This document shows positions 1-49,845 of a stretch of 64,000 nt of DNA, in pieces (the stretch's first letter is position 1; each line of letters starts with the position of its first letter). The notes under the pieces were generated by a model. It did no database searches. It worked only from the letters and a program-made list of their open reading frames with translations, and was not told the origin of the DNA. This DNA comes from Eledone cirrhosa (taxonomy: Eukaryota). The translations under genes were made by a program, and so were the position numbers. The stretch spans positions 42,470,001 to 42,534,000 of the forward strand of contig OZ024744.1 in assembly GCA_964016885.1 (NCBI GenBank), given 5' to 3'.

Positions 1-746
1 CTAAAGAATCAATCACGTGACACTAAGAGTGGGATGGTAAGATGACAGACGCCTACTAACACACCAAAATTTTAGTAGTGGTTTTGGCAGGTTTGCTCGA
101 CAAATCAGTGATTTGGAGATAAATATAGATAATTTAATATATTTACTAACAAATGCGCACATTAGCGTACATCTGTGCGCATTTGTTAGTAAATATATTA
201 AATTATCTATATTTATCTCCAAATCACTGATTTGTCGAGCAAACCTGCCAAAACCACTACTAAATTTTTGGTGTGTTAGTAGGCGTCTGTCATCTTACCA
301 TCCCACTCTTAGTGTCACGTGATTGATTCTTTAGAATCGGCCATTTGACCAGTGGCAGCGAGATTTTCAGTGCTTGGAATCCAGTCCCCGATAGCTGTTC
401 CATTTACCGAATTATTATTATTTTTATATGAGTCCCCAGTGTCCGCGCATTGCCTGGAGACTTAGCTGAGAATAGACCTCCCTGATGACGCAATGAAATT
501 CTCAACAGTTCATTACGTAACTGTCTTTGTCCCATTGCAGAAACTAATTAGTTGGAGTGAAAATTTTAGTAAGTAAGTTAATTTTTTTAAATGTTTATTA
601 AAATTTTCTTATTTTACGTCTCTTATATTATTGTTCTGCATCCTCCTGCATTGAACCACCTAGGTACTATGACATAACCTGTGTATTTGCTGGCATTAGC
701 GTACATCTGTGCGCATTTGTTAGTAAATATATTAAATTATCTATAT
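1..746 (+). mobile_element. Non-coding Penelope-pLTR/retrozyme-like module A: 5' fold-back plus 534-nt terminally redundant monomer
   Basis: 1-161 is the near-perfect reverse complement of 174-334 and may extend beyond the window; 160-212 repeats directly at 694-746; hammerhead at 478-557; ends in (TA)n. Confidence 0.75.
478..557 (+). ncRNA. Minimal type I hammerhead ribozyme
   Basis: ctcc-CTGATGA-c-gcaatg...cattgc-a-GAAA-c-taatta-GTT-ggag: stem I ctcc/ggag, stem II gcaatg/cattgc, palindromic stem III loop. Confidence 0.75.
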
Positions 747-917
747 ATATATATATATATATATATATATATATATATATATATATATATATATATATAT
801 TTATTTGGGTTTGTTGGTTCCCCACTGGATAGAACTGGTCATTCTGTGTGGTCTGCCACGATGTAATGTTATGGGAAGCACTCAACGTAATGCAACCACC
901 CGTCTTCGTTTATGTAG

Positions 918-1250
918 TTGGTGATGCGAATACGGAGTGACAAGCACTTTAACAAGAAACTAAAGTGGTTCAAGCAGATAAAACTAAATCAAGATACTTT
1001 AGATTACATCAATAGATATCCCGACAAATTTGACGGTATAAATATGGCCGACATCTCATTAACAGATGAATTCAACAACAACAACACAAATATATACGGC
1101 AACACTACGGTCGACTCTGATGAATTATCTGTATTACAACTGCCACCTAAGTATGCCACATTTAATAAGGTAAATATGATTAAATGCTTGTCAGAAATAG
1201 AAAAATCATTTACAAAATTACGTTGGAGCCTCAAAAACAAAAACAAAAGT
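918..1250 (+). pseudogene. Penelope-like element ORF, N-terminal fragment
   Basis: ELSVLQLPPKYA...EIEKSFTKLRW resembles the PLE pre-RT motif (LxLGxxF...dle.f.rklR). Confidence 0.45.
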
Positions 1251-1355
1251 AACAACATACGCACGCACACACACATATACAACACACATCCCAACAACAA
1301 CAGACACACAGACACAAACAACAATAACAACAACACACACATCAACAATAATATA

Positions 1356-2692
1356 TTCTTCCTCTTCTCAAGCAACTTCATAGTTTCCTCCGAGACTCTT
1401 CCCTTCTGCTCCCTCGGGCACACACCCTTATCCTTCCTCAAGCACTCCTTCAGTTTCCTTATCAGTGAGTCGTAGTCAGCGTCTATGCCGTCTCCTTGAT
1501 GCCAGTTTTCCTGCATGATGGCTTCCTGCAGCTGCGCCTCGTTGAAGACCCGGACGCGTTCTCCCTTCGACGCCAAATGCAGCGCCTTCTTCTCCCTCGT
1601 CCGGTCGATGACGACCTTCGCCCTCACCAGACGATCATCACTGCCAGTGTTGAATGGCGTTATGACGGAGACGTCCTGCAGTATGCGTCGCTTGTCGACC
1701 AGGATGTAGTCGATCTCGTTTCGGTGCTCAGAAGCCAGGTCCATCTCTTCTCCTCCTTCTTCCTGAATAGGCTGTTTCCAATGTAGAGCCATCTCGCCTC
1801 CGCCATGGTGACCAGACGCTCTCCTCTCTCATTTTGCTATCCTAGGCCGAATCTTCCGACATACTCTTCCCTTTGCCGTCCCTCTCGGAACTTTGCGTTG
1901 AAGTCTCCCATCACGACGGTGTAAGTGGACTTCACAGCTAGCACTTTGTCTAACTGGCGATAGAATTCTTCCACTTCATCGTCGTCACTGGCACTTGTGG
2001 GAGTGTAGGTTTGCACAATCTTGAGGGTAGCCTTCCCTGAGAAGTTCACGTTCAGTACACCAATCCGTGACGATATGAACTGGCAAGAAGCAACCTTCAA
2101 AGCCCATTCCTTGCTTACGATGAATCCTATACCTCCGACCGATCTGGCACCCTCTTCTTTCCCGAGTCTCACGGCGCATCCATCTTGCCATCGCGAACTC
2201 GCCTCCTTCTTCTGGCGGGTCTCGCACAGCCCTAACACGTCGCACCTGATCTTCTTCTTCTGCTCCATTAGGTGGTTCAGTCCTTTCCCCCCTGCCAAAG
2301 ACCTGCAGTTGTAGGTGCATATGGCAAGGTTACTCCTGGACCATGGCGGCCTTCGGGAACCTGTGATTCTTAGCAGCCTCTCGTCGCTCGGATTGCACTC
2401 CGCCGTCGTGGAGTGACCCGTTTGACGTGCAGGGTACTGAGGCCCTTTTCTTCGTGCTGTTTTAGCCATAAGATGACGCCATCCTACTAGCTGGGCGGGC
2501 AGGCCGGTACCTCTTCAGTTTAGCTAGCTTTTGAACTCTAGAAGATGATGAATCATCTCTAAGACCAAAAGTCTGATACCTGTGTAGCATGGTAATACCT
2601 GCCAGGACATTGATTCCCGCTACCGTAGCTATCAGACAGCCAGGGTCACCACTGTGCCACTTTTGAGGCACTGAAGTAGGATTTTGCAGAGG
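1356..2692 (-). mobile_element. RTE-clade LINE, 5' half (5'UTR plus APE endonuclease), 3'-truncated
   Basis: ORF 1837-2469 has APE motifs TYNCRSL, LGLCETR, GIGFIV, YTPTS, GDFNAK; continues NEIDYIL...GSDDRLV in another frame. Confidence 0.9.
2513..2692 (-). ncRNA. HDV-like ribozyme at the 5' end of the RTE LINE
   Basis: Minus strand: P1 cctctgc/acagtgg (2 mismatches), P2 cttcagt/actgaag, P3 gcc/ggc, L3 tcaaaagt, P1.1 ca/tg, P4 ctggct/agctag with large structured insert, J4/2 CTAA. Confidence 0.7.
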
Positions 2693-2835
2693 ATATATGT
2701 ATATATATATATGTGTGTATGTATATAAATATATATGTATGTATACAGTATATATGCATATGTATATATATATATATATATATATATATGTATATATATA
2801 TATGTATATATATATATATGTATATATATATGTAT

Positions 2836-47950: not shown

Positions 47951-48119
47951 AACCGAATAGTATTATTAATATTAATTAACTTTGCCTTTCATCCTTACGG
48001 GGTCAATAAATAAAGTACCAGTAATCCACTGAGTATTTGCTGGCCTTGTGCCAAAAGTAGACACAATTATTATTAATATTCGAAAAACTCAGATTACATA
48101 TATATATATATATATATAT

Positions 48120-48293
48120 ATTGGTAAACGGAATAGAAAATGCTGACAAATTGTTCACAGTGAAACATAGTTTAATTAGGAATAAGTGAGAATTAGTAAT
48201 TGTATTGGTTAGTATTCAGTTTTGGTTTTAAGTTTTACCGGTTGCGCATTTCTAATGCTTTTCAAAAATAATTTTGAGATAGAGCGTCCGTGA
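48120..48293 (-). mobile_element. Solo 3' pLTR fragment of the PLE at 5908-8092
   Basis: Matches 5909-6093 and abuts (TA)n at the same terminus. Confidence 0.8.
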
Positions 48294-48305
48294 TAGATAT
48301 ATATA

Positions 48306-48949
48306 TACAATATATAGAGGGGAAAGACACAGGAGAGTGTGTTTTTCATTACAGGAATTTCGAACTACCAGCGTGAGAAGAATATAAGCTACTAGAGGTA
48401 TTGGTAAAACATTAAAATTATTATTTTTACTTGATATTTGCTCCTTGCGCTCTCTCTCTGCTGTTGAGCACCTTAAATTGAATAGTATAGGCTGCCATCT
48501 CTAGCAGCTTGTTCTGTTCATGCCACCAGTTACTGCCCCGTGCACGCATTTCTCTTATGTCTACACGTGCGAAGGGTGGTTTATTTTAGTTGTCTCTCTA
48601 GTAGTGCGGACACTATTGGCCTTCCACATGCTGATGACCCACCGGGCCATATTGGAACCCATTAAAATGGCGAAACATGCTCCTGGTGAGTCTGTACATG
48701 TGTGATTTAGGTGAGGATGGTTTTTCATTTCAATTTATACTTTTAATTTTAATTTTAATTTTAATGCCTCTAGTAGCTTATATTCTTCTCACGCTGGTGG
48801 CTCGAAATTCGTGTAATGAAAAACACACTCTCCTGTGTCTTTCCCCTCTATATATTGTATTTAAAGTACCCAGGAAAACAATTTCCTTTGAGCTCATATA
48901 ATTACAGGATTATACGCGAGTCCTTTGCTCCGTTATTTTTACTTGATAT
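48306..48949 (+). mobile_element. Non-coding 512-nt terminally redundant module with inverted 5' segment and hammerhead (48625-48702)
   Basis: DR 48421-37/48933-49; IR 48306-48402/48763-48859; cacatg-CTGATGA-ccca...tggc-GAAAC...GTC-tgta-catgtg; GTTGAGCAC at 48463. Confidence 0.7.
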
Positions 48950-49370
48950 ATATATATATATATATATATATATATATATATATATATATATATATGTATA
49001 TATATATATATATATATATACAGTTCAAGAGTAACCAATCTTAAAGAGAGAGATGGAGATAGTAGAGGAGATATGAGAGGAGAGATTGGTGAGTTAGTTA
49101 GAAGCCAAAGCGTAAAGGCATGTGTTCAATGTGCAATATGCAGTAGAAAGCAGCTAGGTGGCTGGTTTCTTGCAGAAGTTAGGTGCGCAGAGCTGGAAAT
49201 ATTCATTAGTTAAGCAAAACAAGACCACAAATTTCACAAGGAAGACATTATTAAAAGATTGTCAACATATTTTAGTTTGATGTAAGGAATGTAGAGAATA
49301 ATAATAATAATATTAATAATAATAATGTCCGTTTACAATTGTTTCGCTACTCCATATAATATTTATGGAT

Positions 49371-49845
49371 CAGATGACTATATATCATAATTGATCTGGT
49401 TCAGTTGAAAATAATTAACATATTTAAAAAACAGAGCGGCTCATCGGAACTTCAAAGGAATATAAATTAAAATAATGAGAGAATGTTACATAATATAATG
49501 TTCCATTATATAATGTTCCATAATATAATGTTCCATAATGGAACATTATATTATGTAACATTCTCTCATTATTTTAATTTATATTCCTTTGAAGTTACGA
49601 TGAGCCGCTCTGTTTTTAAATATGTTAATTATTTTCAACTGAACCAGATCAATTATGATATATAGTCATCTGGCAGGAGGGTATACGTTGCTGACGATGG
49701 CTAATAAGCTTGAAACTAGTACAGCGTTCCTTTGTCAGTGTTGAGCAAATGAGCAACGATGGTTGCTAGACACTGTACGGCTTAATTCGGGATGTCTGTT
49801 TACAAACACATCGAGCATTATAATAAATGTTCGGTGAATCCATAC
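49371..49845 (+). mobile_element. Fold-back pLTR module
   Basis: IR 49371-49508/49536-49672; hammerhead at 49687-49725; GTTGAGCAA at 49740. Confidence 0.7.
49687..49725 (+). ncRNA. Minimal type I hammerhead ribozyme
   Basis: gttg-CTGACGA-t-ggct-aata-agct-t-GAAA-c-ta-GTA-cagc; palindrome actagt. Confidence 0.72.

Follow-up and report, generated by a model that had tools for sequence, protein, structure and literature searches.

Half-kilobase units with hammerhead ribozymes and Penelope-like insertion anatomy in a repeat-rich locus of Eledone cirrhosa

A 64,000-nt stretch of the Eledone cirrhosa genome (OZ024744.1, positions 42,470,001-42,534,000; 37% GC), hereafter the window, holds five short modules whose start is repeated at their end, and raises the question of what kind of element they are and how they were copied. 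Tracts of (TA)n, (CA)n and (AG)n abound in the window, as do pieces of RTE-like and other retroelements. A first-pass annotation had read the modules, named M1-M5 here, as independent non-autonomous families that carry hammerhead ribozymes and are copied by Penelope-like elements (PLEs). Our analysis narrows this reading: the five modules are probably dispersed copies of several unrelated non-autonomous PLEs of the non-LTR (non-long terminal repeat) retrozyme kind, built on units of about 0.5 kb, and the remaining hammerheads of the window are best taken as autonomous PLE tails or as tails of longer units.

Self-BLAST, by which the terminal repeats were found, agrees with the annotated periods, that of M2 being 586 rather than about 585. 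M1 (160-750, plus strand) consists of a 534-nt unit and a 57-bp terminal repeat (160-216/694-750, 98% identical) and ends in (TA)n at 742-799. M2 (11919-12711, minus strand) has a 586-nt unit and a repeat of about 207 nt (11919-12128/12505-12711; 210 bp, 96%), with a period of 583 beyond a poly-A indel and its 3' end at (TA)n. M3 (24403-25110, plus strand) joins a 511-nt unit to a 197-nt repeat (24403-24599/24914-25110, 99.5%) and likewise ends in (TA)n. In M4 (26878-27673, plus strand), which is bounded by TA at both ends, an inverted arm (26878-27040, equivalent to 27432-27592) precedes a 482-nt unit and a 149-nt repeat (27043-27191/27525-27673, 94%). M5 (48302-48949, plus strand) is composed of an arm (48302-48420, equivalent to 48750-48863), a 512-nt unit and a repeat of just 17 bp (48421-48437/48933-48949), the ends of which coincide exactly with the inversion joint and with the terminal (TA)n tract. 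Apart from a single 24-bp match between M2 and M4 (E 0.03-0.04), no pair of modules shares similarity.

The insertions follow a PLE-type pattern. All five modules terminate at (TA)n, as the first-pass annotation had stated, and the internal copy of that end is a short ATAT/TAT-like seed. An inverted 5' arm is present in M1, M4, M5 and M3b, a relative of M3; the arm of M1 (1-159, minus strand), a fold-back of about 176-334 (self-inverted 1-334, 96%), is cut by the window edge, and those of M4, M5 and M3b also end at TA. For M4 and M5, the sequence copied into the arm lies upstream of the main arm in circular coordinates. The copies amount to 1.03-1.4 units; complete dimers or multimers with two full hammerheads, by which Li et al. 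define active retrozymes, were not found in the window (tandem arrays searched to period 500), nor were shorter tandem arrays in what is a very small sample. The description of the modules as free of open reading frames (ORFs) holds for M1, M2, M4 and M5, whose longest ATG frames are 40-80 amino acids, and less well for M3, which has a low-complexity open frame of 150 codons (145 amino acids) with no Pfam match. Unit GC content is 35-41%. Circular folds of the sense strand gave M1 a z of -6.5 and the other modules values between -2.2 and -3.2 (12 shuffles each); in M3 and M5 the antisense folds equally well or better, so folding alone is weak evidence. M4 shows the full PLE-type anatomy with neither a hammerhead nor, by ARAGORN, a tRNA; decay is possible, since its repeats are 6% diverged. 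The narrow range of monomer sizes, singled out earlier as unexplained, is no anomaly, because 482-586 falls within the published span of 51-972 bp, because period is seen only where the cDNA outran the unit, and because three other hammerhead-ending segments run beyond 670 nt without repeating.

Hammerheads were sought with a descriptor that tolerates unpaired nucleotides where stem II begins, as well as long stems and cores of the U3-A8 or U4C form; a strict descriptor demanding a pair directly after the core found none in the window, and an Rfam scan at E<=1 returned no hammerhead family, just microRNA-type hairpin noise. Positions 1-51300 contain 14 matches with a score of at least 26, against a mean of 0.33 (maximum 1) in six block-shuffles, counts that are optimistic because the later descriptors were tuned on the window itself. 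The annotated hammerheads are borne out in three of the five modules, M1 (482, plus strand), M2 (12257, minus strand) and M5 (48631, plus strand), as nested type I motifs in sense orientation, 188-249 nt ahead of the 3' end and each equalled in 0/150 shuffles. That of M1 (478-557; core 482-488, GAAA 540-543) has a long stem II and a palindromic, dimer-type stem III, with a predicted cut after 553. In M2 (12127-12262) a U3-A8 core is combined with a 9-bp stem II and a hairpin stem III, the predicted cut lies after 12132 and the hammerhead is itself the minimum free energy (MFE) fold; a CUGAUGA at 12442 (minus strand) is not part of it. The M5 hammerhead (48625-48702) has a 6-bp stem I, a 3-bp proximal stem II, a long stem III and a predicted cut after 48696. 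M3 and M4 contain no nested hammerhead of note with up to two core mismatches allowed: M3 has only a non-nested arrangement, and in M4, where none was found, a minus-strand candidate was dropped since 4/150 shuffles reach the same score.

Among 12 independent hammerheads of the window, (TA)4 lies at most 260 nt downstream of the predicted cut in 11 and upstream in 3, against a background of 27%; the 260-nt cut-off was picked after the distances had been seen, the TA-proximal arm was used for the pair at 9668/9822, and the count excludes 49447 (minus strand), which lies in a fold-back, and the duplicates 44386, 7933, 14651 and 9822. This polarity indicates that the RNA sense is that of the hammerhead strand and that priming occurs shortly 3' of the cut site. 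A mismatch in place of G10.1-C11.1 at the base of stem II is common to the hammerheads at 482, 12257, 47824, 48631, 49691, 16778 and 25602, which belong to unrelated families.

For M1, the question of whether the unit is part of an autonomous element can be examined directly. Parts of it are present in 13 public runs from 9 studies, most shares being small, and joints and variants were examined in four of these (X1, X5, X6 and X14); X1, X5 and X6 have no firm DNA-or-RNA record, and none of the listed M1 runs is on record as RNA. The 534-nt unit is a high-copy family, with 1811 X1 contigs fitting M1 (read depth was not taken as copy number). Joints going back 534 nt occur in three of the four runs, which gives head-to-tail closure of the unit under three organism labels: in X14 through 5 reads with 2 starts, in X5 through a contig passing from 623-698 to 165-244 and in X6 through one passing from 547-699 to 166-298. 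These two contigs continue to 244 and 298, beyond the 3' end of the window copy itself, and M1 contigs span 207/208, a point at which a partial tandem of single occurrence would be interrupted. One opposite-strand joint (314/457) is an inversion at another phase. The restriction-site-associated DNA (RAD) reads of X14 end at AATT sites and 85% of the placed reads continue unlike; they were not used for phase. The hammerhead core shows no variant (>=10%) among the variants listed (40 of 97), and stem II has a variant form. The M1 unit is closed head to tail family-wide, and it is therefore not merely the terminal repeat of an ORF. The refuting case put forward at the outset, that each monomer is the pseudo-long terminal repeat (pLTR) of an autonomous PLE in fixed phase, thus falls for M1, whose unit closes on itself, and M1-M5 contain no ORF match by which they would be continuous with a reverse transcriptase (RT) or GIY-YIG frame. 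M2-M5 are each represented by the single locus in the window.

Taking the modules as PLE-mobilised retrozymes, the hammerhead would cut a tandem transcript to monomers, which would then be circularised (or stay multimeric). A PLE GIY-YIG domain would nick a (TA)n tract, the nicked 3'-OH would anneal to an internal ATAT-like seed shortly downstream of the cut site, and the PLE RT would copy back over the junction for more than one unit, with a second priming or snap-back giving rise to the inverted arm. A single template for both arms would span about 1.5 units in M4 and about 1.4 in M5; in twin priming, described from work on L1, one template may serve both arms. M2 begins at its 5' end 3 nt beyond the position that corresponds to its predicted cut site, as if the RT had run off a cleaved end, and the M3 cDNA crosses two predicted cut sites. 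A circle, a multimer and a template jump between cleaved monomers are indistinguishable from DNA.

Several observations weigh against this interpretation. The 3' phase shows constraint, in that M3 and M3b end at the same homologous seed; the arms of M3, M3b, M4 and M5 end at seeds other than that tail seed. M4 is without a hammerhead and M3 without a nested one, the MFE fold of M5 favours a blocked rod over its hammerhead, and among M1, M2 and M5 the 5' end falls at the cut site in M2 only. The TA tract of M1 ends 118 nt from a same-strand PLE ORF relic (918), and 500 nt free of ORFs are no proof of non-autonomy, given the 1.05-kb non-coding region of the GIY-YIG PLE described below. The analysis of the modules covers DNA, with one of the five (M1) examined beyond the window, and just 1/9 predicted retrozyme dimers cleaved in vitro in a published study (bioRxiv 2026.07.22.740005).

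The window also holds PLE coding sequence, as had been annotated at 918, 7119 and 50465. Between M1 and an N-terminal ORF relic (918-1250, plus strand) lie the TA tract and the end of a different repeat (770-838, which matches 35156-35220), and a broken RT C-terminus with linker (50465-51297, plus strand; tblastn E 6.5e-22 with P0005) is cut off by a satellite of about 483 copies of a 26-bp repeat (51300-64000). Both relics came back blank from Pfam, the ESM Atlas and a word-index protein search, and in a HMMER representative search they match the same RT proteins of 900-1050 amino acids, one of which also matches the GIY-YIG domain at 7119. This domain (7119-7643; PF01541, E 3.8e-07) forms the C-terminus of a 5'-truncated PLE (5905-8094, minus strand) with a zinc-finger (CxxC) linker, and the element fits directly to the Neptune-type PLEs, which have a zinc-finger linker, TA bias and inverted 5' copies (PMC8557442), the clade being judged by domain order alone. 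Its non-coding 3' region is about 1.05 kb long (1053 nt from stop to hammerhead), so a 500-nt piece free of ORFs need not be non-autonomous. The element carries a hammerhead at 6066 (minus strand) and an inverted arm (7644-8094) with another at 7933 (plus strand), both with a U3-A8 core plus A13C and both continuous with the GIY-YIG ORF. The three tails of this element type (6066, 7933 and 48265) end at one position, and their hammerheads are ordinary pLTR hammerheads. The combination of A13C and U3-A8 is found in 6066 (minus), 7933 (plus) and 48265 (minus), that is, in two independent insertions 89% alike, and the normally essential A13 may on these grounds be altered family-wide in the hammerhead of the GIY-YIG PLE; the related hammerhead at 18695 keeps GAAA.

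These comparisons bear on the other ways in which the modules could have arisen. Rather unlikely, in our estimate, is a scheme that differs from the preferred one in the template alone, namely that the units are non-autonomous and PLE-mobilised and were copied from uncut tandem linear transcripts, with the hammerheads as passengers and the circle unneeded. M4 moved without a detectable hammerhead, the cut sites spanned by the M3 cDNA are intact, the A13C core is common to the independent copies 6066 and 48265, PLE hammerheads cut weakly in vitro (PMC4209133) and the PLEs known as Naiads spread without hammerheads (PMC8557442), all as this scheme would have it; it accounts less well for core letters and stems that are kept across unrelated families and, for M1, across organisms, and for the 5' end of M2 at a cut site. 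Somewhat less probable still is an origin of each of M2-M5 as a single partial tandem, in which an autonomous PLE truncated at its 5' end, and with a long 3' non-coding region, had two short tail copies linked through a template jump. Autonomous PLEs typically show both partial tandems and inverted 5' copies (PMC8557442), and the element at 5905-8094 shows such anatomy together with a GIY-YIG ORF and its 1053 nt from stop to hammerhead. However, the recurrent 534 junction excludes this origin for M1, four independent accidental periods within 482-586 would be unlikely, and M1-M5 resemble neither the 3' region of that element nor any of the PLE relic peptides. An origin of the direct repeats by local tandem duplication or through errors of assembly is very improbable even in a microsatellite-rich region with local duplications (2704-5877, 13179/44049), as the repeats end on TA seeds or inversion joints in 5/5 modules, the repeat pairs differ by 0.5-6% and the M1 joint recurs in independent runs, which largely refutes the idea for M1. 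We therefore retain the non-autonomous PLE interpretation, which as such is already published: the modules are of a known kind with unusual hammerhead variants.

M3 poses a question of its own, in that its core letters are present in another order. Type-SGC hammerheads are reported from metatranscriptomes only (Eckert et al. 2023, PMC10085705), and a candidate of this type lies in M3 at 24470-24540 (plus strand), with the UA cut site and one stem I strand first (S block, predicted cut after 24476), then GAAA (24493) with a stem III strand, and finally the stem I partner with CUGAUGA (24520). A second copy at 24981-25051 (plus strand; predicted cut after 24987) has the same S, G, C order, and these two are the only matches of any block order (70-nt span, 5 bp or more in each of stems I and III) in the window. 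The arrangement was found in 0/2000 monomer shuffles and 0.05 times per window shuffle, with a descriptor devised after M3 had been seen. M3b (18819-19312, plus strand; main arm 18884-19312, inverted arm 18819-18883), which is 72% identical to M3, keeps the three blocks, the letters of S and G being retained; its inverted arm has CUGAUGA intact, its main copy A6C. From M3 to M3b all 8 pairs of stem I are kept, 2 of them by compensatory change, making it the sole fully kept helix of 10 possible 8-bp helices, and 5 of the 6 pairs of stem III are kept, with one change from U-G to C-G; this covariation rests on two sequences. In both, the predicted cut lies about 115 nt before TA, where the other families hold their ribozyme.

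The weak point is stem II, which next to the core amounts to 1 bp in M3, and M3 is for this reason not classed as a type-SGC member. Beyond an internal loop a distal helix of 4-5 bp can be read by eye, and the MFE fold of M3 is a rod. The hammerhead at 9822 has a similar stem II, one pair plus a loop, so such geometry is not foreign to this genome. With HRIMA-1 of type SGC and its variant (PMC10085705) M3 shares the S-G-C order, intact CUGAUGA, GAAA and UH, stems I and III across a pseudoknot, a short link between stems I and II and a length of about 70-80 nt. The published examples in the supplement of that work have a 5-bp stem II by the core plus an extra helix between stems I and II and are metatranscriptomic, whereas M3 has the one pair, the internal loop and the distal helix, shows no conserved helix joining stems I and II (by eye, in the two sequences M3 and M3b) and comes from animal genomic DNA. 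A reading of M3 as a type II hammerhead is ruled out, M3b being without U16.1 in that register. We tentatively propose, as a possibility that the sequence comparison leaves well short of even chances, that the M3/M3b family carries a working non-circularly permuted hammerhead of type SGC with a minimal, internally looped stem II. An nhmmer search found no third family member in the window. Searching metagenome contigs with the motif gave 3 matches, by eye chance occurrences in unrelated prokaryotic DNA, and viral contigs gave 0. Searches of the literature outside subscription journals for an SGC hammerhead in a genome or retroelement surfaced only PMC10085705 and PMC13725137.

Ten further hammerhead or fold-back sites had been annotated; nine are descriptor matches and that at 25534 was recognised by eye, and several are the ordinary PLE tails dealt with above. 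A fold-back fragment at 9562-9927 holds two opposed type I hammerheads (9822 plus and 9668 minus). The minimal type I hammerhead at 13512-13547 (plus strand) lies in a PLE-type fragment within an RTE-like element and is duplicated at 44386; in both places (13150-13687 and 44049-45296) the fragment is flanked by 34-bp direct repeats, and 13179-13957 is repeated at 44049-44827 with 99.7% identity. A segment free of ORFs at 16236-16909 (plus strand) carries a U4C hammerhead at 16778 and no terminal repeat, with a second copy at 14570-15128 (minus strand). The minimal hammerhead at 18691-18728 (plus strand) has a U3-A8 core and is related to the tail of the GIY-YIG element. An element with 425-bp inverted arms (25525-26814) runs 865 nt without a terminal repeat; its type I hammerhead (25602, minus strand) has a long stem II and a core that the descriptors missed. 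At 47821-47861 (plus strand) a type I hammerhead with a weak 3-bp stem I lies in a fold-back fragment, and a minimal one at 49685-49727 (plus strand) stands at the 3' end of an 829-nt segment free of ORFs. In all, three such hammerhead-ending segments measure 673-865 nt and lack a terminal repeat.

Other repeats in the window include near-perfect fold-backs of 120-490 bp (16909-17262, 36592-37077, 15123-15352, 9397-9554 and 49371-49672), several of them between TA tracts; no hammerhead scored within 17037-17156 or 36592-37077. A frameshifted Gypsy-type LTR retrotransposon pol (21037-24075, minus strand) shows protease, RT, RNase H and integrase motifs by eye, C2H2 zinc-finger repeats end an RTE-like ORF at 30416-30874 (minus strand), and at 2704-5877 an RTE-like fragment has been locally duplicated in nested fashion and also inverted (periods 551, 1822 and 2374), with TA-tract joints.

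Most elements of this picture have precedents. Non-LTR retrozymes, their circles and their mobilisation by PLEs have been proposed (Cervera and de la Pena 2020, PMC7229834), as has reverse transcription of circles beyond unit length (PMC4209133); unit lengths of 51-972 bp, the frequency of monomers and a kinship with pLTRs have been described (Li, Clavereau and Pollet 2026, bioRxiv 10.64898/2026.07.22.740005), and a further study covers the bias towards TA, the inverted arms and the tails as well as PLEs that are non-autonomous (Craig et al. 2021, PMC8557442). Like animal non-LTR retrozymes, the modules are non-coding units of low GC content within the published length range, with a type I hammerhead in M1, M2 and M5 and a head-to-tail junction that is family-wide in M1, fall into many families and co-occur with PLEs, their proposed mobilisers. 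Unlike the published ones, the window copies are scattered, measure 1.03-1.4 units and bear the marks of PLE insertion in their TA priming and inverted arms, and their hammerheads are atypical (long stem II, 10.1-11.1 mismatch, U3-A8) or, in M4, absent. The minimal hammerheads in pLTRs of endonuclease-positive (EN+) PLEs (Cervera and de la Pena 2014, PMC4209133) share the type I topology, the palindromic stem III, the longer stem II and the location near the 3' end; M1 differs from a pLTR in closing on itself after 534 nt with no ORF. Non-autonomous PLEs of the Chlamys type such as MRC1 (PMC8557442) are comparable as PLE derivatives with pLTRs and head-to-tail insertions, but belong to green algae, are mostly without a hammerhead and have 3' similarity to an autonomous partner, a similarity not found here.

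The locus supports the published and mechanistically unproven link between retrozymes and PLEs, in an invertebrate-type genome. Its insertions record priming seeds, copying beyond one unit and inversions, so that a circular and a multimeric template become testable on defined junctions, and retrozyme searches requiring tandem dimers with two complete hammerheads and canonical descriptors would miss such families. If the reading of M3 and M3b is true, theirs would be the first pseudoknotted SGC hammerhead found in a retroelement of a cellular genome, within the literature searched; a young PLE parasite would be using, in place of the type I motif, an SGC form that standard descriptors miss, and PLEs held to be without hammerheads, such as Naiads, may hide permuted ribozymes. 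Should M3 cleave, non-circular RNA permutations would no longer be confined to RNA circles from the environment and would include animal retroelements, and new descriptors would be needed for counting ribozymes genome-wide.

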